In this document: piece by piece, positions 1 to 11,928 of the stretch
Layout: each line of letters begins with the position of its first letter
How positions within the stretch are numbered: the first letter of the stretch is position 1
IMG/VR virus record: IMGVR_UViG_2585427787_000004
Location: 1-11,928 of that record
Strand: one strand, 5' to 3'
DNA length: 11,928 nt
From: a virus
Lineage: Duplodnaviria; Heunggongvirae; Uroviricota; Caudoviricetes
Program-made: the position numbers and the translations under genes
The notes under the pieces: model-generated
The model's input: only the letters and a program-made list of their open reading frames with translations
Database searches by the model: none
What the model was told of the DNA's origin: nothing

Positions 1-556
1 CCCCCTCGCCATCAATATCTTCCGGAAAACGGTCATAATCCGTCAGCGCCACGCATTTATAATCTGATGAGGACATGATATTGACTGACGGCCAGCCGAT
101 TTTCAGGTAGTTACCAGCAAGGAATGTTCTGTCATAAACGTTGTTGTCATTTTTGTTCGGACTCAGGCGACTGACCACTTCCGGGCTGACGCGAAACGTT
201 CTGGCGAGTCGTTTTTTGGAGTGTTCGCGGGCTTTTTCCTCCGTCATCTGAATGATCAGCATATCAGCAGGATCGCAAATCACGTTGTAAATCACCCAGC
301 CGTCAATCAGGCCGATAGTCTTGCCGGTTCGTGCCGGGCCAACAAATATCACTGCGTCGTATTCACGCGAGGCCAGGCAGTTCATCGGCTCAATAACATA
401 CGGTGCCACCAGCGGATCCCACGGGACTGAGTTCCCTGCCCCCATGGGCACCCGCATATACTGAGCAACGGCATCAGCAACCCGCATTCGTCTCGGTGCG
501 CGAAGGATATAACCTGAATCGGTTCGTGCTGCCTTTGCGGTTTCCTGATTCAGCAT
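1..556 (-). CDS. Phage terminase large subunit (lambda gpA-like), N-terminal part only; gene continues past the window start
   Basis: Minus-strand frame opens with ATG at 556..554 (MLNQETAKAARTD...) and stays open to position 1. Translation contains a Walker-A-like P-loop (VIFVGPARTGKTIGLIDGWV) and overall resemblance to the N-terminal ATPase region of lambda gpA. Start overlaps the stop of the upstream small-subunit gene (TAATG), the classic Nu1-A arrangement. Confidence 0.85.
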   Translation of the reverse strand, partial: MLNQETAKAARTDSGYILRAPRRMRVADAVAQYMRVPMGAGNSVPWDPLVAPYVIEPMNCLASREYDAVIFVGPARTGKTIGLIDGWVIYNVICDPADMLIIQMTEEKAREHSKKRLARTFRVSPEVVSRLSPNKNDNNVYDRTFLAGNYLKIGWPSVNIMSSSDYKCVALTDYDRFPEDIDGEG

Positions 557-1050
557 TACTCCTCCTGCTGTAATTCCTCCTCATCATCCGCACCTGCTTC
601 AGTCACCCGCAGGGCTATCTGATCGCGCAGATCATCAATAATGGACTGAACACGGCTCACAGCGGCAGGCTGCAGACCGCAGTCACGTTCCAGAATATCC
701 GGTAATGTCTCCAGCACCTGCACGACCGCTTTTGCCCAGATGGCAAACTCCCGTCTGACATCACTGGCCGAAATGAGTTGTGCCGTTTCCTGTTCGAACT
801 TAAGACGCTCACGTTCAGACTGATACCAGGCTTTGCGCTCATGCGCGTCCATTTCGCCTTCTGCAACCGGCGGTGGCAATGCCAGAAATGCCGACACAAT
901 ATCAACCACCCGATAAAGCTTGAGGTTGCTTTCATGCCCCCCTGCAACGGGTAGATTTTGCAGCCTTGCCGCAGCAGTCTGGCGATGTACACCTGACAGT
1001 GCCGCCAGTTGACTGATATTCAGCGTCAGATTTTTTAACTCTCGATCCAT
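556..1050 (-). CDS. Phage terminase small subunit (Nu1-like)
   Basis: 164-aa ORF from the six-frame track. N-terminal HTH-like segment (LNISQLAALSGVHRQTAAARLQNL) followed by an LYRVVDIVSAF segment parallels lambda Nu1 (KKQLADIFGASIRTIQNW...LYDSAAVIKWY); acidic C-terminus; sits immediately upstream of and overlapping the large subunit. Confidence 0.8.
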   Translation of the reverse strand: MDRELKNLTLNISQLAALSGVHRQTAAARLQNLPVAGGHESNLKLYRVVDIVSAFLALPPPVAEGEMDAHERKAWYQSERERLKFEQETAQLISASDVRREFAIWAKAVVQVLETLPDILERDCGLQPAAVSRVQSIIDDLRDQIALRVTEAGADDEEELQQEE

Positions 1051-1153
1051 ACCCGCTCCAGAATGTTTTAAACATGCATCTCGCGAACAACTTTAGGCAA
1101 ACGGTGTTAGTGATGAACAAAAAACAATCAAAATCGACACCATAAAAATAAAA

Positions 1154-1181
1154 CCACTGTAATATCAATCTATTACAGTGG
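1154..1181 (-). terminator. Perfect 11-bp inverted repeat (CCACTGTAATA-TCAATC-TATTACAGTGG) followed on the minus strand by a T-run; candidate rho-independent terminator or cos-region element
   Basis: Inverted repeat read directly from the sequence; plus-strand 1130-1153 is A-rich, so the minus-strand transcript has a U-tract right after the hairpin. Lies about 105-130 nt upstream of the Nu1-like start. Confidence 0.4.
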
Positions 1182-1632
1182 TGGTGATGACGAATAAAAT
1201 TTTAAAAACTAGCCTTTTTCCGCGACGCTCCCGCCCCGTGGCAGGCCACCCCACCGGAAGGACCCGCACAAATGAGAGCGTTTGTCATTAACATTTACAG
1301 ATAAGATGACGTACATCATTGAAACGCCATTCAGCCATATACCGGCAGCATTCGTAGTTGCACTCCGTAACTCTGCGACTAAGGTTAAAAACATGGCCCT
1401 CTTTTGCCACCGGCAAATCTTCAATGGATTTCCCCTGCCGGTTTTTTATTTTCGTCGATGCATAACATTGCATTTACATCAATAGCGGCTATTGTCATTA
1501 GTATGTTGCATCAATGCATGGGTGGTATTGGCGGTCTTCGCCGGCCGCTTCTGTGTAGCTGCTCCCTGTGACCGGTTTTTTATTTCTCACATTACAGCAA
1601 CCCCTTAGAGTGAAGGGCTGCTGTAATGCCTG

Positions 1633-2028
1633 TTACTCACGAATCAGGCGAGCACTCTTACTATTCATTTCAATACGCGAATACTGCGGTTTACCATCAA
1701 TGATGTCTGTCATTACGAACACCTCACCCGGCTGCAGTTCAACTGCACCTTCCGGTAATTTCATACCGGCAAATACCGGACAACCCGGATGACGATCATC
1801 TTCTGTTGCTTCCAGCATTGACTCACCAAACCACTCCGTCGTGGCGCGACCATCAGCTGCTTTGTAGTGGATCAAGTACTGGTTTTCGCCATCCGCATAC
1901 TGCGCGCGGGCTTTAACCTCACCCCATTCATCACTGATACGCATCTCCACCAGTTGAGACAACTCAAACTTAAACGGAGCAGCATCAGCACCAATTACAA
2001 TCGGTTTGTTTTCTGTTTTTTCCATCAT
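1633..2028 (-). CDS. Hypothetical acidic protein (131 aa), moron-position gene of unknown function
   Basis: ORF-track frame 1633..2076 trimmed to the tandem ATG ATG at 2028/2025, which is preceded by an AGGAGA Shine-Dalgarno (rev. comp. of 2031-2036). Protein is rich in D/E (MMEKTENKPIVIGADAAPFKFELSQLVEMRISDEWGEV...). No family recognised. Confidence 0.6.
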   Translation of the reverse strand: MMEKTENKPIVIGADAAPFKFELSQLVEMRISDEWGEVKARAQYADGENQYLIHYKAADGRATTEWFGESMLEATEDDRHPGCPVFAGMKLPEGAVELQPGEVFVMTDIIDGKPQYSRIEMNSKSARLIRE

Positions 2029-2199
2029 CGTCTCCTGATATCGAAGCCCGTCGCCGCACCGGGCACTGATCAACATTTGAGTATTCGCGGCGACAGAAAG
2101 AATTTATTTTATTGAGTAGCCACAAACACAGAATTTCATGCTTTCCGGACGCTGACGCACCCTTCATTTTTCAGCAAAATATTCTGCTCTTACAGGCGA

Positions 2200-2382
2200 T
2201 CAGTTCTGCAGACACTGCCGAACACCGTCGACAATTTCACAGACCTGAGACGCGGTATCGAAAAGCTGGCGCGCCTTATCCAGGCTGACGCACCCCACCA
2301 ATAAAAAAGGCACCAGTATCGCTACCAGTGCCCGTTTCACCGCCGTTCGCGGCATTCTGTGTGTCCAGTGTTTTCGCGCCAT
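2200..2382 (-). CDS. Small lipoprotein (signal peptide with lipobox LLVGC, roughly 30-aa Cys-containing mature part)
   Basis: Translation MARKHWTHRMPRTAVKRALVAILVPFLLVGCVSLDKARQLFDTASQVCEIVDGVRQCLQN. ATG at 2382 is preceded by GGTGGTGAT; an internal ATG at 2355 is an alternative start. Lipobox L-V-G-C after a hydrophobic stretch. Confidence 0.55.
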   Translation of the reverse strand: MARKHWTHRMPRTAVKRALVAILVPFLLVGCVSLDKARQLFDTASQVCEIVDGVRQCLQN

Positions 2383-2383
2383 A

Positions 2384-2497
2384 TCACCACCAACGCACAG
2401 CCCAAATCAGAACAGCGACCGCCACAAGGCGAATTGCAAAGGCCGCAGCCCTTGTCAAATCAAGGCTCGCGGGAGTTTCCATTTCAATACCTTTCAT
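2384..2497 (-). CDS. 37-aa peptide with C-terminal hydrophobic helix (MKGIEMETPASLDLTRAAAFAIRLVAVAVLIWAVRWW), below the ORF-track size cutoff
   Basis: Hand-translated from the minus strand. ATG at 2497 preceded by GAGGT Shine-Dalgarno at about 8 nt; stop TGA at 2386..2384, one base before the lipoprotein ATG, suggesting a coupled pair. Confidence 0.3.
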   Translation of the reverse strand: MKGIEMETPASLDLTRAAAFAIRLVAVAVLIWAVRWW

Positions 2498-2587
2498 AAT
2501 GGACAACCTCAAAAAGAATCTTTTATACTTTCCCACGAGGATTTTCTCCGTACTCACTAATCACAATTTCCCCTTTGACGTGAAAAC

Positions 2588-2627
2588 TAAAAACCCCGGA
2601 CTGTTCCCCCAGCCGGGGTTTTGTTTT
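2588..2627. terminator. Bidirectional rho-independent terminator hairpin (CCCCGG-A-CTG / CAG-CCGGGG) flanked by A-run and T-run
   Basis: Stem-loop read from sequence 2594-2618 with TTTTGTTTT on the plus side and AAACTAAAAA before it (U-tract for the minus strand). Located immediately 3' of the endolysin stop. Confidence 0.6.
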
Positions 2628-2629
2628 AC

Positions 2630-3007
2630 TTATCGCTTCAGCTGAAAGTGAGGTCCGTCTTTCAGCGTTTTCCAGTCCCCGCCCCATTCGATAGCGATCC
2701 CCAGCTCTGCGGCAGCCTGCTTAAATGCCTGTGCGATTTTCTCGTACAGAGGCCACTCCCATGACACCTGGCTGCCGATGTAGGCCACAACATCCACCGC
2801 ATCACCGGTCAGGTGGCGGCTGTTCATGGTCTGGCTTTTCCCTTCCGCAACCAGCTGTTTCTGGCGATACTTACTGCGCAGGCCTTCCGTAATACCGAAA
2901 TCAACCTCCGTCAGCTCCAGCGCACGGCGAACTACAGCAACCAGCTGTGGTTTGACACCCTCCAGATTTTTTTCACTGCGACGGCTGAATCTGAATTTAC
3001 CCGGCAT
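2630..3007 (-). CDS. Endolysin, peptidase M15 family (zinc D-Ala-D-Ala carboxypeptidase / L-alanyl-D-glutamate peptidase-like)
   Basis: Translation shows the M15 zinc-ligand pattern: SRHLTGDAVDV (H-x6-D) and C-terminal DGPHFQL histidine. The ORF track begins at a GTG (3013); I prefer the ATG at 3007, which has a GAGGTG Shine-Dalgarno about 5 nt upstream and sits 2 nt after the TGA of the preceding gene. Confidence 0.8.
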   Translation of the reverse strand: MPGKFRFSRRSEKNLEGVKPQLVAVVRRALELTEVDFGITEGLRSKYRQKQLVAEGKSQTMNSRHLTGDAVDVVAYIGSQVSWEWPLYEKIAQAFKQAAAELGIAIEWGGDWKTLKDGPHFQLKR

Positions 3008-3009
3008 AT

Positions 3010-3285
3010 TCACCTCAACAATGGAAAGATTTTTGTGACGTTCCCGCGTGCGTGTATCACCAGCACGCAGAACAGCAGGTTAAAAAACACTTCCAGCCAG
3101 CCCGTTGCTAACGGGCGACCACACAGATAGCTGAGGGGCGCAAAGGCATACAGCAGCATCAGCAGCCAGGCCAGCCATGACACCAGCGGTTTATGTCTGG
3201 AATCACGGCGACGATAAAAAAAGAGCGTCAGCACGATAACCGTGCATAACGCCACATTCAGCAATCCGGGAAGGTTACTTAACAT
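3010..3285 (-). CDS. Lysis-cassette membrane protein (91 aa, 2-3 predicted TM helices); possible second holin or antiholin
   Basis: Hydrophobic translation (LLNVALCTVIVLTLFFY...WLAWLLMLLYAFAPL...FFNLLFCVLVIH); ATG at 3285; tightly packed between the putative holin and the endolysin. Confidence 0.5.
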   Translation of the reverse strand: MLSNLPGLLNVALCTVIVLTLFFYRRRDSRHKPLVSWLAWLLMLLYAFAPLSYLCGRPLATGWLEVFFNLLFCVLVIHARGNVTKIFPLLR

Positions 3286-3667
3286 TGCCGCCTACTCCAC
3301 CCCGCAGGCGGGAGAACACACCGGACACCAGCGATGCAATATCCTGCTGGTGGATGAACGAGAGAATCTTCACCGACACCACCGAGACCAGCACCGCGCA
3401 AAGCGCATCTGCTGATGTACCGTCATACCCTGTTTTTGATGCAATCCAGGCTGACAGCACACGCGCTCCCAGCACGCCGACAATAAACGACACCAGAAAA
3501 TGCGCCACCACGCGCCAGACTGAAAGTGACTGCGGCATCGTTGCCACAAATAACGCCCCGGCGAACGCGCCAAACACAATCCCGAAATCCATCCCGGTAA
3601 ACAGCCCGAATACCGTCGCGCCACCCAGCGCCGCAGCCGTGCCGGAACCGGATAAGGGTTCAGACAT
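3275..3667 (-). CDS. Putative holin (130 aa, three hydrophobic segments)
   Basis: ORF-track frame 3275..3718 trimmed to the ATG at 3667, which is preceded by a strong AGGAGG Shine-Dalgarno (rev. comp. of 3671-3676). Three hydrophobic helices and a charged C-terminus; first gene of the lysis cluster upstream of the endolysin. Confidence 0.55.
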   Translation of the reverse strand: MSEPLSGSGTAAALGGATVFGLFTGMDFGIVFGAFAGALFVATMPQSLSVWRVVAHFLVSFIVGVLGARVLSAWIASKTGYDGTSADALCAVLVSVVSVKILSFIHQQDIASLVSGVFSRLRGGVGGNVK

Positions 3668-3755
3668 ACTTCCTCCTGAAAATAAAAAAAGGGCCACCAG
3701 CGACCCGTAAAAAAACACCCCGTCAAAGGCACCCGCAGATGCCTTTTGTGTGATG

Positions 3756-3908
3756 TTATTCAGATTTACGCAGTAAAGGCCGGAGCACGATCAGCGCCAT
3801 CGCCACCAGCACACCATCTGCCAGCACTGACATCAGTCGTCCGGTGAAATCCACCATCACTACCAGAAACAACAGGATGACAGCCAGCACAAGGCGCGCA
3901 CTTTTCAC
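3756..3908 (-). CDS. Possible 50-aa hydrophobic peptide (GTG start) just upstream of the holin; very tentative
   Basis: Hand-translated minus-strand frame: (GTG) KSARLVLAVILLFLVVMVDFTGRLMSVLADGVLVAMALIVLRPLLRKSE, GGAG about 8 nt upstream of the GTG. Below the ORF-track cutoff; no homology recognised. Confidence 0.2.
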   Translation of the reverse strand: MKSARLVLAVILLFLVVMVDFTGRLMSVLADGVLVAMALIVLRPLLRKSE

Positions 3909-4111
3909 AGGTACTGCTCCAGCGGCAACTGCAGCGCCTGCGCAATTTTCTTCAGTTGCGCTTCTTCTTCCTGACCGATACCGTCCTGGTCAGCGATATC
4001 CAGACACAGACACAGCACATTCACAGTATCATCAGTATCTGCAACATCAGTCAGCTGACGAAGGGCTTCAGCATTAGCAGAACGCGGTGGCGCTTCATAA
4101 CGGGCGCGGAT

Positions 4112-4137
4112 ATGAAAAAGGCCCGCCGAAGCGAGCC
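4112..4137 (-). terminator. Candidate rho-independent terminator after the tRNA cluster (GGCUCGC-UUCG-GCGGGCC followed by U-run on the minus strand)
   Basis: Hairpin read from plus 4120-4137 with A-run at 4115-4119 (U-tract on the minus transcript). Confidence 0.45.
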
Positions 4138-4151
4138 TGGAAAAATAAGCG

Positions 4152-4228
4152 TGGCGCGTTGTACTGGATTCGAACCAGTGACCGATTGCTTAGAAGGCAA
4201 TTGCTCTGTCCGGCTGAGCTAACAACGC
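4152..4228 (-). tRNA. tRNA-Arg (anticodon UCU), phage-encoded
   Basis: Reverse complement folds as a cloverleaf: acceptor GCGTTGT/ACAACGC, D-arm GCTC...GAGC, anticodon stem ATTGC/GCAAT with loop CTTCTAA (anticodon TCT), T-arm ACTGG-TTCGAAT-CCAGT, discriminator G, encoded CCA. Confidence 0.85.
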
Positions 4229-4241
4229 AGGGTACAGATAA

Positions 4242-4318
4242 TGGACCGCCATCGAGGACTCGAACCCCGCGCAACCAGCTTCGAAGGCTGGCGCTCTATC
4301 CTGATGAGCTAATGGCGG
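4242..4318 (-). tRNA. tRNA-Arg (anticodon UCG), phage-encoded
   Basis: Reverse complement: acceptor CCGCCAT/ATGGCGG (perfect 7 bp), D-arm GCTC...GAGC, anticodon stem CCAGC/GCTGG with loop CTTCGAA (anticodon TCG), T-loop TTCGAGT, encoded CCA. Confidence 0.8.
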
Positions 4319-4325
4319 TATGTGA

Positions 4326-4401
4326 TGGTGGCCCTTGCTGGATTTGAACCAGCGACCTGGCGATTATGAGTCGCTCGCTCTCACCACTGAGCTAAAGGGC
4401 C
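4326..4401 (-). tRNA. tRNA-Ile2-like (anticodon CAU; sequence resembles the E. coli lysidine-modified AUA-reading tRNA rather than tRNA-Met)
   Basis: Reverse complement GGCCCTTTAGCTCAGTGGTGAGAGCGAGCGACTCATAATCGCCAGGTCGCTGGTTCAAATCCAGCAAGGGCCACCA closely resembles, as I recall it, the chromosomal tRNA-Ile2 (ileX/ileY); anticodon loop CTCATAA. Confidence 0.8.
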
Positions 4402-4450
4402 GGGAGCAGAATAATAATGGTGCGTAATTAATTCTGCAATCTCATCCGTT

Positions 4451-5500
4451 TCAAACGATTAAATCCTGAACTTCCCTGACTGTCTGTTCAAAACGTCCGG
4501 TCTCCAGCTCAACACCAATCGCACAACGCCCCAGTGCCATCGCCGCTTTTACCGTTGAACCTGAACCCATAAAAAAATCTGCAACCAGGTCTCCCGGACG
4601 ACTGCTCGCGTTGATTATCTGCTGCAGCATTTCTGCCGGTTTTTCGCACGGATGTTTCCCTGGATAGTACTGCACCGGTTTATGCGTCCAGACATCGGTG
4701 TACGGAACCTGCGCCGTCACACCGAAATACCGCCGCAAATTTTTATATTCACTCAGCAGTTCCGTATACTGCCGGTTCAGCTCACTGTATGTGCTGACCA
4801 GCTGGTGGTGTGGCTTTTCCAGTTCCCCGCGCTGATGTTTTTCTGCCGCAACACGCGCAAACAACGCCTGCAATTTATTGTAATCACCCTCGTTCGGTAA
4901 CTGCCACTGACTGGCACCAAACCAGTGCGAAGCCATGTTTTTCTTTCCGGTGGCTTCCGCTATCTGTTTTGACGTTATTCCCAGTGATTTACGCGCATCA
5001 CGAAAGTAAGAAATCAGCGGGGCCATGACGTGCTGTTTTAGCTCGCGCCCCTGCTCCACATAGCCATCATCTTTCGGGCGATACGGTCCCTGATAATGTT
5101 CTGCAAACAGAATGCGCTCTGTTGCCGGAAAATACGCCCGCAGACTTTCCTTATTGCACCCGTTCCAGCGTCCGGACGGCTTCGCCCAGATAATGTGGTT
5201 CAGCACATTAAAGCGCTCACGCATCATGATTTCGGTGTCAGATGCCAGGCGATGACCACAGAACAGGTAAAGACTTCCGGCAGGCTTCAGTACCCGCCAG
5301 AACTGCGCCAGACACTGGTCCAGCCATTTCAGGTAATCATCGTCGCCCTCCCACTGGTTATCCCAGCCCTCGGGCTTCACTTTAAAGTATGGCGGGTCTG
5401 TGACTATCAGATCGACAGAGTTTTCCGGTAAGGTCTGGATAAACTCCAGGCAATCAGCGTTGATTAACTCACAACTGGATATTTTTACAGTATTAATCAT
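4451..5500 (-). CDS. DNA methyltransferase, beta-class amino-methyltransferase (probably N6-adenine); no adjacent restriction endonuclease seen
   Basis: 349-aa ORF. N-terminal catalytic motif IV DPPY (LIVTDPPYF) and C-terminal AdoMet motif I FxGxG (DFFMGSGSTVKAAMALGRCAIGVE); the IV-then-I order defines the beta class. Confidence 0.85.
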   Translation of the reverse strand: MINTVKISSCELINADCLEFIQTLPENSVDLIVTDPPYFKVKPEGWDNQWEGDDDYLKWLDQCLAQFWRVLKPAGSLYLFCGHRLASDTEIMMRERFNVLNHIIWAKPSGRWNGCNKESLRAYFPATERILFAEHYQGPYRPKDDGYVEQGRELKQHVMAPLISYFRDARKSLGITSKQIAEATGKKNMASHWFGASQWQLPNEGDYNKLQALFARVAAEKHQRGELEKPHHQLVSTYSELNRQYTELLSEYKNLRRYFGVTAQVPYTDVWTHKPVQYYPGKHPCEKPAEMLQQIINASSRPGDLVADFFMGSGSTVKAAMALGRCAIGVELETGRFEQTVREVQDLIV

Positions 5501-5650
5501 AGATCAATAAGCACTTCTCTGATAGGCTCATACCGCTTTTGCGCAAAGCAGATGGGCCTGAGGTTTGCTTGTGACCCCAACGCATGAGCAGATGGCTGGC
5601 AGGTGCCGCTAACACCCACCAGCCGCCCATTACCACAAATTAAAAAGCCT

Positions 5651-5848
5651 TCACTGCGGAAGGCGTCTGTAACAACCGAACTGATAATCTGCCAGACCCG
5701 CCATAACAAGCTGAGTCAGTATTAACTGGCAGCGTTCGCGTGAAAGGTAAGTATTCTGCGCAATTTCCCCGACGGTCGCCGGTTCGGTGATGCTTAATTC
5801 ATTAAACACCACTCTGGCGGTTTCGGTCATATCCTGCTGTTTTAGCAT
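5651..5848 (-). CDS. Small protein (65 aa) with helix-turn-helix-like segment; hypothetical
   Basis: ORF-track frame 5651..5971 begins at a GTG lying inside the terminator hairpin; trimmed to the first ATG at 5848 (alternative ATG at 5830). Translation MLKQQDMTETARVVFNELSITEPATVGEIAQNTYLSRERCQLILTQLVMAGLADYQFGCYRRLPQ. Confidence 0.4.
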   Translation of the reverse strand: MLKQQDMTETARVVFNELSITEPATVGEIAQNTYLSRERCQLILTQLVMAGLADYQFGCYRRLPQ

Positions 5849-5971
5849 GCCTTTTTCCCTTTTCCGGTTAACGTGACATACCAATACCTCTTGTCGAAAA
5901 AGCCAGCAAGCTGAAAGACCGGCATTCGCAACCACCAGCGCATTTAACGTCCTGTACCGCTTTTCGGGCAC

Positions 5972-5995
5972 AAAAAAACCCGCATAAAGCGGGTT
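5972..5995 (-). terminator. Rho-independent terminator immediately downstream of the Q-type gene (candidate tR')
   Basis: Stem AACCCGC-ATAAA-GCGGGTT (5977-5995) with A7 run on the plus strand at 5972-5978, i.e. a U-tract after the hairpin on the minus transcript. Confidence 0.6.
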
Positions 5996-6054
5996 CTTTC
6001 AGGTGTCCATGTCTGCTATTCGCCTCGCGGTATAGCTTTGCGAAGCGTAGCTGG

Positions 6055-6083
6055 ATTGAAACAGTTTATGCGTAAAAAATCAA
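6055..6083 (-). promoter_or_regulatory. Candidate late promoter (pR'-like): -35 TTGATT, 17-nt spacer containing TG, -10 TTCAAT on the minus strand
   Basis: Hexamers read from the reverse complement of 6055-6083; the position between the Q-type gene stop and the terminator matches the lambdoid pR'/qut-tR' arrangement. Hexamer match is weak, so this is positional inference. Confidence 0.3.
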
Positions 6084-6634
6084 GACATTTTTTGAGCAAA
6101 CGATTCTCGCATAGGGATGTATAGCGCATATTCAGCAACAGCTAACCAATTAGCAATTCGCTTTTCGCATGTACTAAAACACCATTCCGGGTGCACCTCA
6201 TTCAACAATTCAGCCATTTTGCGTTTACTCATCCCCCGCCCTTCGTACCTTTGCCGCAGGATATCAATCAATCCAGGATAACGTGCAAGCGCTTTACTTA
6301 TCACCCCATCAATGCGTAACGCCTCTGCATCAGTACAGTGAGACAACCAGCTCTTCTGTCTGCCAGCGATCATCTCTCGCAAGAATGCTTCCAGCTCTGG
6401 TTTATCAATCCCTGACTCCCTGATTCTACGCAGGGCTTCATTGATTGCGGTTTTTGTCAGTTTTTTGGATGCCAGCAACTGATTGAACATATTTCCTGGT
6501 TTGCCACCACCTATATACGACCAACGCCCCCACATCCGTAATTTCCCCTGGATCCAGACGGCTTCCAGCGTTTTTAGACGTAAATGCTCGCCGCTTTTGC
6601 CTGTAATTTCCGGGTATATCATATTTACGATCAC
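6080..6634 (-). CDS. Putative late-gene antiterminator Q (Q-family protein)
   Basis: 184-aa ORF (GTG at 6634; first ATG at 6622). Contains an LRMWGRWSYIGGG segment resembling the WGAW segment I recall from phage 21/933W-type Q proteins, and sits in the canonical Q position: after rusA, before a promoter-terminator pair and the lysis genes. Confidence 0.6.
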   Translation of the reverse strand: MIVNMIYPEITGKSGEHLRLKTLEAVWIQGKLRMWGRWSYIGGGKPGNMFNQLLASKKLTKTAINEALRRIRESGIDKPELEAFLREMIAGRQKSWLSHCTDAEALRIDGVISKALARYPGLIDILRQRYEGRGMSKRKMAELLNEVHPEWCFSTCEKRIANWLAVAEYALYIPMRESFAQKMS

Positions 6635-6996
6635 TCACTCTCAATTTTGTAAATCTTCACGCCCAGCCGCCCCCCAGGAACGCGCTGACCGCGCACAATA
6701 TTGATTTCATCAAACTGCTCGTCGTCTATGAGAAGTCCGGCATGCGTCAGCGCATCCAGTGGTGCTTTCAGGATATTGTCCAGGTCACGACGACGTTTAT
6801 CCGGTGGCTCTGCAATAATCTTTATCGCCAGCCTTCCGGACAGGTTTAATTTCAGCCGCTGCTGGCGAACAATAAGCGCCACATCACGGCGATAACGCTC
6901 ACCGGCTTTTGATACAAAATATGTGCTGCCACGACGTCGCCAGTAAGTGTTCACCGTTGGCGGGTAAGGCAAAACAAATTCTATGCGTTCAGTCAT
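6631..6996 (-). CDS. rusA: Holliday junction resolvase RusA
   Basis: 121-aa translation with the RusA catalytic signature (PPDKRRRDLDNILKAPLDAL) and N-terminal LPYPPTVNTYW motif; size and motifs match E. coli RusA. Start ATG abuts the upstream stop (TGAATG). Confidence 0.9.
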   Translation of the reverse strand: MTERIEFVLPYPPTVNTYWRRRGSTYFVSKAGERYRRDVALIVRQQRLKLNLSGRLAIKIIAEPPDKRRRDLDNILKAPLDALTHAGLLIDDEQFDEINIVRGQRVPGGRLGVKIYKIESE

Positions 6997-8052
6997 TCAT
7001 GCTTTCCACTTCAGGACACCCGAATTTCTCGCGTGCATTAAAAAACGAATCAGCAACAACAGCTGGCTGCCGTGTTTTTCTTCAAAATCTTTTACCCCGG
7101 CGTGTAGTTCGCTATGGCATTTACGGCACAGCGGAATAACAAACAAATCATCAGCCTTTGTTCCCATCCCTCCCAGTCCATGACCAATGATGTGATGCGG
7201 ATCATCTGCCTGATTACCACACGTCATGCATTTCTGCGTTTTTACCCAACGCGTGTATACAGGCATCTCTTCCCGTCGTGGTTTCTGGCGCTGGAGATAC
7301 TGAGCCGGTGACTCCGGATCAACGGCAATGCTTACCACCGTCTTTTCCTGTGGCGGGTTTTGCTGGTGGGCGTGAGGCAGTAGCGCAATATTTTTTGTGC
7401 GCTGCTTCAGCATGCTGGTGGCGGTCTGCTCTCCCGGCACGATGTCGCTCTCGCGGTATACTGAGCGAATTTTTTCCGCGCGTAATCCCAGTGAACGACG
7501 TAACACCGTCTCCGGTAGTGCGTCCGCTACGTTATTTATGGTTGCCCACCAGGATAATTCAGCCAGCGATAATTCCCGCTCCTGCGTGCCATTCATTGCG
7601 TGGCGGATGACATCAATCATCCATGCTGACAGGTTTTGGTGAGCAAGCTGCCCGAGTGATTCGGAAGTCTGGTTACGCAGCTGGTTGTCGCAGTGCCAGC
7701 ACAACACCATCGCGCCGGTACCGTAACGATGTATGACGGTTTCACTGTGATGGTAGTCACCATGAGGCCACTGGCAGGATTTAACGTGGCGTAACAGCCA
7801 GTCAGACAATGCACCAGCACCACCAGCAGCACGAATCACCCGCTCATCGCTGAAAAATGGCAGTAATGATTTATCCTCCGCCAGCGGCTGGCGAACAGCA
7901 GGAACGACTCCGGACGGCAGACCGCGCATGCTTTTCGGTTCCGGCTCCACCAGAACTCGAGGGTTATGAAATACCTGCATGGATTCACGGCCCGGTTTTA
8001 GCACCACCAGCCCAAGTTCCGGTACCGGAACAGGTCGAAGTAATACCCGCAC
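6997..8052 (-). CDS. Phage DUF968-like protein (YdfU-like) with C-terminal Cys/His HNH-type zinc-finger motif
   Basis: C-terminal CMTCGNQADDPHHIIGHGLGG...CRKCHSELH motif. The ORF track starts at ATG 8124, which would overlap the upstream gene by about 70 nt; I prefer the in-frame GTG at 8052, preceded by GGAGG with 4-nt spacing and lying 1 nt after the upstream TAA. Confidence 0.65.
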   Translation of the reverse strand: MRVLLRPVPVPELGLVVLKPGRESMQVFHNPRVLVEPEPKSMRGLPSGVVPAVRQPLAEDKSLLPFFSDERVIRAAGGAGALSDWLLRHVKSCQWPHGDYHHSETVIHRYGTGAMVLCWHCDNQLRNQTSESLGQLAHQNLSAWMIDVIRHAMNGTQERELSLAELSWWATINNVADALPETVLRRSLGLRAEKIRSVYRESDIVPGEQTATSMLKQRTKNIALLPHAHQQNPPQEKTVVSIAVDPESPAQYLQRQKPRREEMPVYTRWVKTQKCMTCGNQADDPHHIIGHGLGGMGTKADDLFVIPLCRKCHSELHAGVKDFEEKHGSQLLLLIRFLMHARNSGVLKWKA

Positions 8053-8053
8053 G

Positions 8054-8326
8054 TTACCTCCAGATGCGTTGCTGGAATGTGCGGGACGGACGCGGTGGGC
8101 GTTCGGAATAAGGGAGCCTGACATAGATTATCCAGTGACGATAATCGAGGCTGAGGGCTTTCTTAATCTCGTATCCGCGTCTGCGGTAGTTATGAATTAG
8201 CCATTCGGCCTGTTCTTCAGTACATGGTGGGTGTTGGTACCAGTCGGTTTTAAATGCGTGTGAACGCCGCCCATGCCGGATGGCAAGGGCGGTATCAGAA
8301 TTGTGAAATTTGGTTTTGTGCGCCAT
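8054..8326 (-). CDS. Small basic hypothetical protein (90 aa); occupies the slot between the hok gene and the DUF968 gene
   Basis: ORF-track frame 8054..8485 reads through the terminator hairpin at 8408-8425 (the segment NPLRRVLFFP is the hairpin translated); trimmed to the first ATG downstream of the terminator at 8326. Translation MAHKTKFHNSDTALAIRHGRRSHAFKTDWYQHPPCTEEQAEWLIHNYRRRGYEIKK... Confidence 0.45.
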   Translation of the reverse strand: MAHKTKFHNSDTALAIRHGRRSHAFKTDWYQHPPCTEEQAEWLIHNYRRRGYEIKKALSLDYRHWIIYVRLPYSERPPRPSRTFQQRIWR

Positions 8327-8398
8327 CGGTTGTCTCTGCTGGCGCAGCAGGTGCCAGTTGTTCAGGCTGGCGTGCGAATTGTAAACCAGAATGCCAGG

Positions 8399-8425
8399 AA
8401 AAAACAAAACCCGCCGAAGCGGGTT
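8399..8425 (-). terminator. Rho-independent terminator downstream of hok
   Basis: Stem AACCCGC-CGAA-GCGGGTT (8408-8425), same stem sequence as the terminator at 5977-5995, preceded on the plus strand by AAAAAACAAAA (U-tract on the minus transcript). Confidence 0.6.
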
Positions 8426-8493
8426 AAGTGCGGGTGCGTTGAGGATGCCTGACTCATCAGAGGTGGCGAGGGATTTCTCCCTCACCTGGTCTC

Positions 8494-8649
8494 TTACTCC
8501 TCAGGTTCGTAAGCTGTGAAGACAGCGACCTCCGTCTGGCCGGTTCGGATTCGTACCTCGCAGAGGTCTTTCCTCGTTACCAGTGCCGTCACTATGACGG
8601 TTAAACAGATGACGATCAGGGCGATTAACATCGCCTTTTGCTGCTTCAT
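8494..8649 (-). CDS. hokD: Hok/Gef-family type I toxin (51 aa)
   Basis: Translation MKQQKAMLIALIVICLTVIVTALVTRKDLCEVRIRTGQTEVAVFTAYEPEE matches, as far as I can recall, E. coli HokD (RelF); typical Hok TM helix plus the conserved Cys/Tyr periplasmic tail. ATG at 8649 preceded by AAGGAG. An in-frame upstream ATG at 8706 gives a 70-aa extension (possible mok-like reading frame). Confidence 0.85.
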   Translation of the reverse strand: MKQQKAMLIALIVICLTVIVTALVTRKDLCEVRIRTGQTEVAVFTAYEPEE

Positions 8650-9050
8650 AGCCTGCTTCTCCTTGCCTTTCGGCACGTAAGAGGCTAACCTAGATTTGCC
8701 GTTCATAGATTGAGCCTCAGATTAATGTTAAACGTCTTGCAGGACGCGTAACGTTAACTGGGGCTTTTCTCTATCTGCCTTTTGGTGGCATGCCTGAGAC
8801 AGATAACCTCAAGCACCCGCAGTAATTTTACATAAAGGTTATGGTTCCTTTCAATAACTCAACAATTTCCCATCTAAATACTACTCATATAGTCATATAG
8901 GCTGGCGATAATTTAAAGATAAGACTCTCTCTTTTTCTCCACCACATAATGCATTACCAACGCAAAAGTTACCATGGTAATTATATCTTAACGAAAAATA
9001 CCCCGCGAACATATTCTACTCAACAAAAAATTTTGCGTACGCATTATTCT

Positions 9051-9079
9051 TTGTAGTATCTTAAGTATGTAATTATTTT
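9051..9079 (+). promoter_or_regulatory. Candidate sigma-70 promoter for the two-gene cassette (-35 TTGTAG, 17-nt spacer, -10 TATTTT)
   Basis: Hexamers read from sequence about 20-45 nt upstream of the ORF A ATG in an AT-rich leader; match is modest. Confidence 0.3.
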
Positions 9080-9097
9080 TTACAGGAAATTTTTGCA

Positions 9098-10012
9098 ATG
9101 GCTAGCAAGCGCTTTTTCTTCGATTTTTATCAATGTCACACTATAAGCACTGATACAAATGCAGGAGTTAATTCACCTGAAGCTGTTTTTTCAAAAATTT
9201 TTGAGTCATACAGCGAAGGCCGAGACAAAACTGTACGTAAAATAGGAAATAAACTAGTTGAAATGCGCTTCATGGAAAGAACCGACTATGGTTTCAGGGG
9301 AGTTATAGGAAAACACAGAACCAATAATCTCCCTCATGTTGCTGTAGCCGGAGGTGAAGAAAGAGAAATTAAACTTGAAATCAATGAAAACTTATTAGAA
9401 AAAGCTTATTTTCATTTTTATACCCAAGACTCAGTTTTAATAATTCAACGAAACAGACTCTGTTATGGCTGGTTGCTATTAAGTAAATATCTTTCCAACA
9501 GTTCACAAAATACAACTGTTAATCCCATCATTCAGACCAGTAGTTTAAAGTGGTTGATGCGTAATGAAGTTCGAATCAAAACTCTAGAAATCGGTATCGC
9601 TCGGCCAAAGAATGTGCAACTATATGAGGATGTTGAACATAACTTCAACAATGCATTGATAGCCACTCTAAATGGTACTAATTCTGCCAAAGTAAATCTT
9701 ACATTACGTGGGGATAGTCGTTCTGAAGATCCTGAATCTCGCTATCTAGGTTCTCAACTAAAAAGAGCCTTTAAAGAAACACTAGAGACTTTTGAGGTTG
9801 AAAAACTTAAACTAGAAACCCAAGACATTGAGACCGGTGTACAGCATCCTATCGATCTTGTAGCAGACAAATTAGTCTACTACACAGATGTTGAACTTGG
9901 AGGTAGGTATCCATTAGTTGGCAGCATTTGGAGCGCCTTAACTCTTGCAAAAGATAGTAAAGATGATGAATTGAAGGCATACTTTGGAGTAGCCAATCAA
10001 AGAGTTGATTAA
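9098..10012 (+). CDS. Hypothetical soluble protein, 304 aa (ORF A of the AT-rich cassette); no family recognised
   Basis: Long ORF with AT-rich codon usage, ATG at 9098 with a weak purine-rich stretch upstream. No Walker, HxH or other catalytic motif that I can assign with confidence. Followed 15 nt later by ORF B. Confidence 0.7.
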   Translation: MASKRFFFDFYQCHTISTDTNAGVNSPEAVFSKIFESYSEGRDKTVRKIGNKLVEMRFMERTDYGFRGVIGKHRTNNLPHVAVAGGEEREIKLEINENLLEKAYFHFYTQDSVLIIQRNRLCYGWLLLSKYLSNSSQNTTVNPIIQTSSLKWLMRNEVRIKTLEIGIARPKNVQLYEDVEHNFNNALIATLNGTNSAKVNLTLRGDSRSEDPESRYLGSQLKRAFKETLETFEVEKLKLETQDIETGVQHPIDLVADKLVYYTDVELGGRYPLVGSIWSALTLAKDSKDDELKAYFGVANQRVD

Positions 10013-10027
10013 TTTTGGAGCGATGGT

Positions 10028-10507
10028 ATGAAAAAGGGGAAATTGATAACTTTGTACAGTTATGGTTATAATTTAGCCTCTGTTGTTTTTTGTATCATCG
10101 CATGGCCTCTTTCTGCAAAGCTAAATTTTGCACAAATTCAGCCAATCGCTTCGGCCGTTTCTACATTTTCTGGGATATTATTTGGCTTTGTTTTAGGTTC
10201 GCTTACCTTGATTGCTTCAGCTAGAGATAATACGCTAATTAGAAATATAGGAAAAACTGGTTATTTGAAAAAACTGACCGAAGAAATGCACTCCACTATG
10301 GGATGGTTACTATCAGTTTGTATTATTTTTATCATTTTATTATTTTTCCCTGATACACTAAAGTTTAAATTCCCACTAGTAAAAGATGCCGACGAGCACA
10401 CATATGCCCAACTATTACTCCAAGTGGGAATTTTTTTCCTGCTTATTACATTTAAAAAATTTTATACTACCTGGTCGCGTCTAAAAGACATAACAAGGCT
10501 CATGTGA
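10028..10507 (+). CDS. Hypothetical small polytopic membrane protein, 159 aa, about four TM helices (ORF B of the cassette)
   Basis: ATG at 10028 preceded by GGAG at about 8 nt. Four hydrophobic segments (LASVVFCIIAWPL; IASAVSTFSGILFGFVLGSLTLIA; MGWLLSVCIIFIILLFF; YAQLLLQVGIFFLLITF) separated by short charged loops. Confidence 0.7.
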   Translation: MKKGKLITLYSYGYNLASVVFCIIAWPLSAKLNFAQIQPIASAVSTFSGILFGFVLGSLTLIASARDNTLIRNIGKTGYLKKLTEEMHSTMGWLLSVCIIFIILLFFPDTLKFKFPLVKDADEHTYAQLLLQVGIFFLLITFKKFYTTWSRLKDITRLM

Positions 10508-10512
10508 TATAT

Positions 10513-11037
10513 CTATAATTGCACATAAAAAGACAATCCTAACAATACTCCCATTGTAAGTTGTATATTCTTTCTTATTGTTCCATCTGAACATTTGTAC
10601 CTTCGTGCTATTGTACGCAAAGATATACCTATAACAAAATGAGCGATAATTAACTCATAGTCATCTATTCTATATTGTTTAAGCTTCAACATGCAGGTAT
10701 CAATCATACGACCTTCATCGTTGCCACACTGACGGCGTAATTTCTTACCATGAGGTACTACATCTTTATATTTATCAGCCACTTGCTGCCAGTTGATAGA
10801 ACTATTTCCAGCTGCAGCCCAAGCCCCCCAACTGTCCAAAATATCATATATATTAGCATTGCTATCCACCTTTTTTTTATATTCTTTTTTGAGGCAACCA
10901 AGAAGCATCCTGGCCATCGTTATTATTTCTATACTTGTAACTGATTCATAAGCATCAGGAGAAATAATCCTCCCATCACTTAATGCCCTTTCACTAAGAT
11001 TTGCTATTTCCAATAATCGTTCTTTAGTTATTTCCAT
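10513..11037 (-). CDS. Q-family antitermination protein paralog (phage 21/933W-Q-like), 174 aa from the ATG
   Basis: Track ORF starts at GTG 11049; the ATG at 11037 has a GGAGA Shine-Dalgarno. The C-terminal 100 aa parallel the 933W/21-type Q as I recall it: LDSWGAWAAAGN vs LERWGAWAANN, CGNDEGRMIDTCMLKLK vs CCDDDAMIICGCMARLK, YKCSDGTIRKNIQ vs HCCSDGYIGKRLQ. AT-rich codon usage. Confidence 0.65.
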   Translation of the reverse strand: MEITKERLLEIANLSERALSDGRIISPDAYESVTSIEIITMARMLLGCLKKEYKKKVDSNANIYDILDSWGAWAAAGNSSINWQQVADKYKDVVPHGKKLRRQCGNDEGRMIDTCMLKLKQYRIDDYELIIAHFVIGISLRTIARRYKCSDGTIRKNIQLTMGVLLGLSFYVQL

Positions 11038-11162
11038 TATTATCTCCACCGCCCTTTCGGGCGGCCTCCTGATGTTCTGAGGGTGCAGAAATCCCTCCGG
11101 TTAAGGATTAAATTTTATTTACAGTGCTGGATTTAATTATTCAGATTTGGATTATGCTTTCT

Positions 11163-11928
11163 GTAAGCGACTCGTCAGAACCGTATTGATATTTACTGAG
11201 AGCTCAGATCAACTTTCCAGGGCAACAGATCGCGTACCCGGTTTGCCGGCCAGTCCTGGATATGTTCAATGACGTAACGCAGCCACTTTTCTGGCTCCAC
11301 ATTGTTCAGACGGCATGTGCCGATCAGCGAGTACAACACCGCCGCATGTTCACCACCGCTGTCGGAACCCGCGAACATCCAGTTTTTCCGGCCTACGGCC
11401 ACTCCCCGTAAGGCGTTCTCTGCGATGTTGTTGTCGATTTCCACCCAGCCATTACTGCAGTACACGTTCAGTGCATCCCACTGTTTCAGCAGGTATGCGA
11501 ACGCTTTTGCCGTATCTGAGTGACGCGACAGTGTTTTCATCTGTTGCTGTATCCAGTCATACAGTGACTGCATCAGTGGCGCGGCTCTGGCTTTTCTTGC
11601 CGCCAGACGCTGTTCTGCTGAACAGCACCGGACCTCTGCCTCGATGGCATACAGTTCACCGATACGCTGCAGGGCTTCCGTGGTGATGTAGGTGGGCGCT
11701 CTTGCATGCACATCGTGGATTTTTCTCCGGGCATGAGCCATACACGCGGCTTCCGTTATTCTGCCGGATTCGTATAACGCCCGGTAACCACCGTAAGCAT
11801 CGGCCTGAAGCACACCGCTGTAACCGGCCAGGTGATTTTGTGGATGGATACCTTTCCGGTCCGGACTGTACGCGAACCAGACCGCCGGGGGCATCTGTGA
11901 ACCGGCGTTACGGTCATCACGGACGTAG
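11163..11928 (-). mobile_element. IS66-family insertion sequence, right-end portion (terminal repeat beginning GTAAGCG at 11163); element continues past the window end
   Basis: IS66-family terminal inverted repeats start with GTAAGCG; this motif sits about 30 bp beyond the stop of the IS66-type transposase ORF, the expected geometry for the tnpC-proximal end. Confidence 0.65.
11193..11928 (-). CDS. IS66-family transposase (TnpC/orf3), C-terminal part; N-terminus lies outside the window
   Basis: Translation has the characteristic IS66 TnpC segments ([56 protein letters not shown]). The frame stays open from the track start (11894) to the window edge. Confidence 0.8.

Follow-up and report, generated by a model that had tools for sequence, protein, structure and literature searches.

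A long-form Q21-family gene and a palindromic site beyond its neighbors flank an exchangeable, putative defense cassette in a lambdoid prophage of Escherichia coli

Why should a lambdoid prophage carry a second gene for a Q-type antiterminator, tail-to-tail with genes of the opposite strand and far from the late operon? This question is raised by an 11,928-nt stretch of viral DNA (Caudoviricetes; positions 1 to 11,928 of the IMG/VR record IMGVR_UViG_2585427787_000004; hereafter, the window), which is part of a Rac/Qin-like prophage of E. coli whose phage-forward direction is the minus strand. The gene in question (10513-11037, minus strand) encodes a 174-aa protein, starts with the ATG at 11037, and ends with a TAG codon at 10513-10515; in agreement with the first-pass annotation of this DNA, the coordinates leave only 5 bp (10508-10512) between this stop codon and the TGA codon (10505-10507) of the convergent ORF B. 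That annotation saw no room for a cognate pR'/qut site and took the gene either for a remnant of a phage whose late region had been replaced or for a regulator of the gene island. The comparisons described here provide good support for the view that the gene is a functional member of the Q21 family, that its family-specific site lies past the cassette formed by ORFs A and B, and that gene and site together frame an exchangeable defense cassette.

The protein matches the Phage_antitermQ domain (Pfam ID PF06530) over its residues 66-172, which cover positions 3-109 of the 118-position profile (E value of 2.8e-30; 105.1 bits against a cut-off of 26), and PHROG 79, “anti-termination protein Q-like” (E value of 2.5e-32), and it retrieves the Q21 structures with an E value of 1e-3. 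The first-pass assignment of the gene to the Q family is correct. In identical loci, PGAP names the product “antiterminator Q family protein.” Precomputed matches to Sigma70_r4_2 (PF08281) exist for two close homologues (P0014 and P0019); for the window protein itself, the AlphaFold2 model of the long form, built from 63 sequences, has a mean pLDDT of 48 and is unusable. A scan of the genome contigs with the single Q-like protein returned no match.

The gene consists of two parts. Codons 63-174 (10513-10851) encode a QuuD-like Q domain with the family-conserved helix CSDGTIRK, whereas codons 1-62 (10852-11037) encode an N-terminal extension that has no counterpart in the short Qs aligned. Short Q relatives in the databases comprise 111-145 aa, and the long form is thus a short Q with about 60 additional N-terminal residues. 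At a threshold of 90% identity, the intact long forms (161-185 aa) of E. coli and Salmonella sort into about 24 clusters, and every one of these keeps the family-invariant residues WGxW, DxxG, HF, SL, and CxxGxxRK; a near-full-length copy is present in 68 of 5,426 complete E. coli genomes. The N terminus matches phrog_3323, and an exhaustive search of 1.8 billion proteins with the N-terminal 65 residues found just 8 representative clusters, two of which have unrelated C termini and none of which offers a functional clue. Derivation of the extension from the 85-aa ORF located upstream of the short Q in Stx1 phages was considered and rejected, as there was no BLAST match. In some copies, the N-terminal and Q domains are found in separate frames or fragments (92, 84, and 57 aa; e.g., positions 9344-9857 of locus L214, and proteins P0121, P0122, and P0125); such copies may have arisen by frameshift or may reflect an ancestral arrangement as two genes.

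Comparison of the window gene with seven other alleles gave overall dN/dS ratios of 0.21-0.37, with values below 1 in each of three segments barring one near-identical pair; by this measure, the long-form gene is under purifying selection and is being maintained, not decaying. Synonymous divergence climbs from 5' to 3' along the gene, from about 0.03-0.27 through 0.20-0.41 to 0.43-0.74, and the last 70 residues form discrete alleles that track the type of the neighboring cassette. Such a pattern is expected if recombination swaps cassettes with one breakpoint inside the gene.

Where, then, would such a protein act? The argument that there is no room for a site assumes that the site must abut the gene, and this assumption fails here. 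At 9034-9043, 1.47 kb downstream of the Q-like gene and on the far side of ORFs A and B, lies a 10-bp palindrome, TGCGTACGCA (core GCGTACGC at 9035-9042), with AAAA next to it in the phage-forward direction and no second copy in the window. It is probably the sequence that Qs of this subfamily bind (the Q-binding element, QBE). In an alignment of eight different cassettes, GCGTACGC plus AAAA is the sole conserved element outside the hok region in the DNA between the cassette start and hok, and the full 10-bp form is present in 7 of the 8. The core occurs exactly once per long-form locus (12-20 kb), always between the cassette start and hok, against a chance expectation of 0.18 per 12 kb; four loci that lack the Q-like gene have no copy.

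The association extends well beyond the long form. Viral contigs were scanned for exact matches to two 14-mers, CGCGTACGCAAAAA and TGCGTACGCAAAAA, each of which was found in at least 120 loci; the counts that follow are among the matches listed. QuuD-like Qs are encoded by 107 of these contigs, and the motif is always downstream of the Q gene and co-oriented with it. In 7 of the 107 it follows the Q stop codon by 50 nt, the textbook arrangement, and in the other 100 it is 622-3029 nt away. Opposite-strand ORFs cover more than 60% of the gap in 97 of these 100 cargo loci (mean, 87%). Their cargo belongs to 55 protein clusters, which include Kiwa KwaA/KwaB (E values of 1e-83 and 2e-126), OLD/AriA/Gabija-like ATPases, a RelA_SpoT protein, NA37 proteins, PDC-S42, and PADLOC candidates, as well as many clusters with no PADLOC or Pfam match. 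From the orientation of the ORFs in the gap and the defense families among the cargo, the DNA that separates QuuD-type Q genes from their QBEs is a hotspot for inverted defense cargo, of which the window locus is one instance. In the literature searched we found no description of a Q-flanked hotspot or of DUF6731, the family of ORF A; that coverage is incomplete, and an earlier description may exist.

Well-known phages show the same order. In SfII and mEp460, a short homologous Q gene is followed by inverted cargo, the palindrome, a -10-like hexamer, TTAAGAGTGG, an intrinsic terminator about 55 nt further on, and the lysis genes, an order that amounts to the layout of a Q-dependent late promoter. 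The short Q is the only Q in these two phages, the adjacent 329-aa “Q” being a DUF968 protein. In the DLP12 prophage of E. coli K-12 (NC_000913.3, about 577.2 kb, nmpC-essD), quuD is followed by the inverted nmpC, then tttACGTACGTaaaaa, TTAAGAGTGG, a terminator, and essD; the DLP12 lysis operon has been reported to be under the control of a phage Q-type antiterminator (PMC7918800). The palindrome of DLP12 is a variant, ACGTACGT, in which a symmetric change retains the palindrome, and QuuD has Gly in place of an otherwise invariant Arg in the CSDGxIRK helix. Together these two changes constitute a suggestive candidate for protein-DNA covariation, seen in a single case.

If the palindrome marks a late promoter in short-Q phages, what does it mark in the window? 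Here it overlaps the -35 element of a predicted cassette promoter on the plus strand (9033-9062), in which TTGCGT (9033-9038), the left half of the palindrome, is separated by an 18-bp spacer from the -10 element TATCTT (9057-9062); the ATG of ORF A is at 9098. We counted promoter elements over distinct sequences, scoring terminators within 125 nt and, in the cargo direction, -10-like hexamers 16-18 bp after TTGCGT. Short-Q loci with an adjacent site (n = 7) have a forward -10, a pause-like TAAG.. sequence, and a terminator in 7/7 cases each and a cargo-direction -10 in 0/7. Among short-Q loci with cargo (n = 73), the forward -10 is found in 46, the pause-like sequence in 69, the terminator in 47 (probably an underestimate, given the strict detector), and the cargo-direction -10 in 51. 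The long-form loci (n = 12) retain a forward -10 in 1 case and the pause-like sequence and terminator in none, while a cargo-direction -10 is present in 10. The cargo-facing promoter is therefore the only promoter architecture retained in the long-form loci. In these loci the palindrome is followed not by late genes but by hok, nin-type genes, and another Q, and the first terminator met in the window is that of hok (8425..8408). The conclusion that the long form has left the canonical Q-dependent late unit is thus well supported by these counts. The best reading of the long-form locus would make it a derived version of a widespread lambdoid module, consisting of a Q gene, inverted variable cargo, and a QBE, that is placed in the nin region of Rac/Qin-like prophages upstream of hok.

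The comparison with prophages carrying the same Q allele, suggested in the first-pass annotation, shows what normally lies downstream: a variable inverted cassette and then hok. We inspected 22 long-form loci (12 distinct), comprising 10 independent genomic loci and 12 viral contigs. In 22/22, the long-form gene meets 1-3 opposite-strand genes tail-to-tail, with spacings from a 4-bp overlap to a 40-bp gap; hok follows the cassette in 10/10 genomic loci and was detected in 10/12 viral contigs. In the window, cassette gene A (ORF A; 9098-10012, plus strand) encodes a soluble 304-aa protein of the DUF6731 family (Pfam ID PF20505, E value of 2.2e-12; phrog_7651, E value of 8e-142), and gene B (ORF B; 10028-10507, plus strand) encodes a 159-aa protein (phrog_8552) with four hydrophobic segments, as judged from the translation. 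ORF B is weakly RexB-like, its PADLOC matches being RexB (E value of 1.5e-3 over 70 residues) and PDC-M18B (E value of 6.6e-3). No RexA, NA37, PDB, or PADLOC match was found for ORF A, and the pair matched no PADLOC system; the two genes look like an uncharacterized two-gene exclusion system in the style of Rex or PANGU.

At least eight different cassettes stand beside the long-form gene. In addition to the DUF6731 plus membrane protein pair of the window, these include two versions of an NA37 “nucleoid-associated” protein with a C-terminal-transmembrane protein, a 309-aa plus 182-aa membrane pair, a three-gene set, a single 332-aa gene, and 273 + 161 and 311 + 199 pairs. The combination of NA37 with a transmembrane effector is the type II PANGU defense architecture (bioRxiv 10.64898/2026.04.06.716658). 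Further on, long-form prophages have their own, unrelated late Q from the DUF1133, Q82-type PF06323, or Q-lambda-type PF03589 family, and at least four different late-Q partners were seen. In related phages without the long-form gene, the same interval holds small co-directional ORFs. The prophage in NZ_CP134805 (locus 1916-4941) carries a type I restriction-modification pair, HsdS/HsdM, just past hok and beside an IS4 remnant, which suggests that the neighborhood gathers further defense genes.

In the window, the late-Q role falls to the DUF1133 protein (gene at 6080-6634, minus strand; E value of 6e-103), which together with a promoter-plus-terminator unit just downstream occupies 5970-6634. 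The DNA 3' of this gene contains a promoter-like stretch, a strong terminator, and a weak, below-threshold isrK-like Rfam match (5973-6046, minus strand; 21.6 bits). In Gifsy-1, IsrK lies directly downstream of antQ, a Q-like antiterminator gene (PMC4825925), and this layout, taken with the three features 3' of the DUF1133 gene, identifies the latter as the late Q of the prophage; the isrK-like stretch is probably the short promoter-proximal RNA of this Q, by analogy with IsrK. The first-pass annotation was thus right that the window holds two Q-like genes and that the one studied here is not the late antiterminator of the prophage. Its description of this gene as a paralog of the other did not hold, given that the DUF1133 protein matches PF06530 marginally (E value of 1.9e-6) and BLASTP fails to align one with the other (E value of 0.45). 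The AnrP/IsrK/AntQ cascade of Gifsy-1 was considered as a precedent for two Qs and rejected, because AnrP is anti-repressor-like and not Q-like (PMC4825925).

What could a Q protein do at a promoter that faces away from the late genes? The best explanation, to which we give about an even chance, is that the gene encodes a functional Q21-family protein that has its cognate site, TGCGTACGCA, beyond the cassette and probably acts there as a repressor of the defense cassette, assisted by convergent transcriptional interference. In the lysogen, the early operon would be silent and the cassette would be transcribed from its own promoter, with transcripts running antisense across the Q-like gene. Upon induction, early transcription would yield the Q-like protein, which, bound to the palindrome, would occlude the cassette -35, while convergent, terminator-free transcription would interfere with the cassette transcripts; as a net effect, an abortive-infection-type cassette would stay off while the prophage itself grows lytically. 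Binding of the palindrome and control of the cassette promoter, as well as the repressive sign of this control and its timing, are what we infer from the arrangement of genes and sites. Repression is favored because the same overlap of promoter and QBE occurs in phages where Q is made only late, and because defense cargo would need to be expressed in the lysogen without Q. A terminator scan found no intrinsic terminator on either strand between the convergent Q-like gene and the cassette, which makes the convergent transcription raised in the first-pass annotation plausible. Of the options offered there, a regulator of the island fits the evidence best.

Several points weigh against this explanation. 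The link between protein and site is purely one of association, and Q21 has a QBE made up of two directly repeated 8-bp subsites instead of a palindrome (10.1101/651190). The -35 element TTGCGT matches the consensus at 3/6 positions, and TATCTT with its 18-bp spacer is a mediocre -10, so that the same geometry could serve activation. Shutting off the promoter leaves in place the defense proteins that have already been made. In this particular strain, an IS66 element severs the gene from the early operon, and the proposed timing cannot hold there as such. Finally, the long-form loci inspected are a sample from at least 68 genomes.

The alternative that survives best, unlikely though we consider it, is that the protein is still a processive antiterminator, which loads at the palindrome and reads through the hok terminator into the DUF968-rusA-late Q operon, as a “middle” step. 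Its Q domain has all the family-invariant residues and is 55-60% identical to those of working short Qs; the QBE has the forward orientation, with its AAAA side towards hok, in every locus; hok and its strong terminator always come next, with the late-Q operon behind; and an inverted untranslated stretch of 1.7-2.8 kb in an early operon would otherwise invite polarity. However, the forward -10, pause-like sequence, and nearby terminator, nearly universal in short-Q loci, are the very elements missing from the long-form loci, and in known cases Q loading needs a sigma-dependent pause beside the QBE (10.1101/651190). Moreover, related prophages without the Q-like gene have the same hok-to-late-Q layout.

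An activator at the same palindrome comes next and is likewise doubtful. Such a protein would replace or recruit sigma region 4 at the weak -35, and cassette expression would be confined to times of Q-like synthesis. The palindrome lies directly over this -35, the sigma-R4-like fold of Q21 contacts the flap-tip helix of RNA polymerase (10.1101/651190), and alleles of the C-terminal third of the window protein go together with particular cassette types. The last of these observations is, however, explained by the intragenic recombination breakpoints indicated by the rise in synonymous divergence, and the convergent layout opposes joint expression of the activator and its target. In addition, the promoter/QBE overlap is also found in the short-Q phages with a cargo-direction -10, where Q is made only late in the lytic cycle, and cargo such as Kiwa would presumably have to be expressed in the lysogen in its absence.

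It is quite improbable that the locus is a functionless relic, i.e., a Q gene and cargo captured from another lambdoid phage and kept by linkage. This idea, close to the remnant reading of the first-pass annotation, is in keeping with the low GC content of the gene relative to the backbone, the decay of the forward late-promoter elements, the presence of a separate late Q that handles antitermination in the prophage, and, in this strain, the IS66 insertion 126 nt 5' of the ATG. It is contradicted by dN/dS values of 0.2-0.37 that include the conserved N-terminal extension, by the intact state of the gene in about 24 clusters, by the retention of both gene and site across at least eight cassettes and at least four late-Q partners, and by a QBE core that is invariant while the flanking DNA cannot be aligned between cassettes. 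Least probable of all is a role in exclusion. The protein would be a Q look-alike, prevented by its N-terminal domain from forming the RNA-exit nozzle, and by sitting on the GCGTACGC QBEs of superinfecting phages it would block late transcription in these phages. The 8-bp core is common to many different phages, the gene sits in a defense slot, and the extension is joined to the N-terminal side of the Q domain, which in Q21 forms the torus; however, the QBE of the locus itself is strictly conserved, as would be expected of a site used in cis, and the structural model has a pLDDT of 48.

The region upstream of the gene bears on its expression in this strain. A conserved leader (11038-11162, minus strand), kept in all long-form loci, includes a hairpin with a GNRA loop (GGCCGCCC-GAAA-GGGCGG, about 11049-11069) directly 5' of the Shine-Dalgarno sequence GGAG, which itself lies 7 nt 5' of the ATG; substitutions across the long-form loci mostly preserve the pairing. 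The alternative start codon GTG at 11049 sits within this hairpin and is an unlikely start of the gene. A 70- to 100-nt stretch of the leader also precedes small genes of other, unrelated kinds in lambdoid phages, Stx phages included (ArgO145, 6030-6098; PhiR42_1), and the leader behaves like a mosaic “linker” sequence across these phages. The fold of the whole leader is unexceptional (z score of -0.8). A nut-like boxA/boxB reading of the hairpin was set aside on these two grounds. The leader abuts the end of an IS66-family element (DDE_Tnp_IS66; 11163-11928, minus strand), which starts with GTAAGCG, and identity with IS-free loci stops at 11162; the element parts the Q-like gene from the early operon of the prophage. 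A promoter-like sequence, CTGACG-16-CATAAT, spans the junction (11178..11151, minus strand), with the -35-like CTGACG coming from the IS end and CATAAT from the leader, and may be an IS-generated hybrid promoter for the Q-like gene in this strain. Uncoupled from the early operon and next to this junction promoter, the gene may be expressed here differently than in IS-free relatives.

In descending coordinates, the window thus runs from the IS66 element (from 11163 to the window end) through the Q-like gene and the inverted ORFs A and B to hok/mok/sok (8854-8408) and then, beyond hok in the phage-forward direction, through a small ORF, DUF968, rusA, and the DUF1133 gene to a methylase, three tRNAs, holins, endolysin, and terminase. 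The GC content is 32-39% over 8800-11100, compared to about 50-55% in the surrounding prophage backbone; the Q-like gene, at 35%, is AT-rich, as the first-pass annotation noted. The hok/mok/sok module (8408-8854, minus strand; sok, RF01794, 108.7 bits; Pfam HOK_GEF) contains, according to the promoter and terminator scan, a promoter-like site (8854..8825), a mok/hok ORF (8494-8706), and the intrinsic terminator at 8425..8408. A weak isrK match at 8404-8485 raised the possibility of another pR'-like unit beyond hok, which was rejected; the match is the 3' end of the hok mRNA with its terminator. The three tRNA genes (4155-4401, minus strand) have the DNA methylase gene on one side and the lysis genes on the other, and tRNA-Arg and tRNA-Ile are annotated in an identical locus.

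A bolder formulation, which we advance tentatively and hold to be clearly less probable than repression itself, is that a processive antiterminator has been turned into an operator-binding switch, with the long-form Q supplied by the early operon and its palindromic QBE serving at the same time as the -35 of the defense promoter. The Q-like gene and the cassette would then form a tail-to-tail toggle with defense on in lysogeny and off in lytic growth, a major undescribed lambdoid defense hotspot would be walled in by QuuD-type Q genes and their QBEs, and Q binding would couple the activation of late genes to the shut-off of the cargo. Such a layout offers a candidate answer to the question of how prophages avoid triggering their own abortive-infection systems during lytic growth and, if correct, would mean that the Q scaffold has been reused as a conventional site-specific regulator. 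It would also provide a signature, a QuuD-type Q gene followed at a distance by GCGTACGC-AAAA, for finding defense cassettes in enterobacterial prophages, many of which, the DUF6731 plus membrane protein pair of the window among them, have no PADLOC match. Lastly, a large and unstudied part of the Q21 family, the K-12 QuuD included, would gain a probable QBE.

How does this locus compare with known systems? Lambda Q belongs to a different family (PF03589), with a zinc finger, a feature of Q-lambda and not of the Q21 family, and its gene abuts its promoter. The look at zinc-binding residues proposed in the first-pass annotation is therefore not applicable to the window protein. The short-Q relatives nevertheless resemble the lambda Q/pR'/qut unit in having the QBE in the promoter spacer just 5' of the -10, with a -10-like AAGAGT-GG at about +1 to +9; the lambda counterpart, AACGAT-GGG, offers a lead only. 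The Q of phage 21 (Protein Data Bank entries 6P18 and 6JNX) shares PF06530, and its residues 19-101 align with residues 70-151 of the window protein. The similarity is remote, and relative to Q21 the window protein is 60 residues longer at its N-terminal end and shorter at its C-terminal end. Q21 uses a sigma-R4-like helix-turn[loop]-helix with an 8-bp recognition unit (10.1101/651190). In contrast to Q21, the window has a single palindrome as its site, with no adjacent pause element or terminator, and the gene is not beside late genes.

The closest relatives are QuuD of DLP12 and the short Qs of SfII and mEp460, which have homologous Q domains (about 55-60% identity for SfII/mEp460) and share the module of a Q gene, inverted cargo (the nmpC porin in DLP12 and two unknown genes in SfII), and a palindrome-marked promoter. 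Unlike the window protein, these Qs (103-127 aa) have no N-terminal domain and are each the only Q of their phage, whereas the window has a second one. In their units the palindrome is followed by a -10, TTAAGAGTGG, a terminator, and the lysis genes, whereas in the window all three of these elements are missing and hok and the second Q come instead. As for the cargo, RexA/RexB and type II PANGU are likewise two-gene sets of a soluble protein of ~300-400 aa and a membrane protein, and ORF B is the weakly RexB-like member of the window pair, although ORF A (DUF6731) has no similarity to RexA or NA37 that the tools applied could detect.

The slot as a whole is best compared with the defense hotspots of P2-like phages and P4-like satellites, where conserved flanks on a temperate element surround highly variable anti-phage systems (Rousset et al. 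2022, PMC9122126). The Q-flanked slot likewise combines conserved flanks with diverse cargo that includes validated defense systems. It differs from the P2 and P4 hotspots in that its flanks are the gene of a transcription factor and the predicted binding site of that same factor, and in that the cargo invariably runs against the direction of the phage operon.

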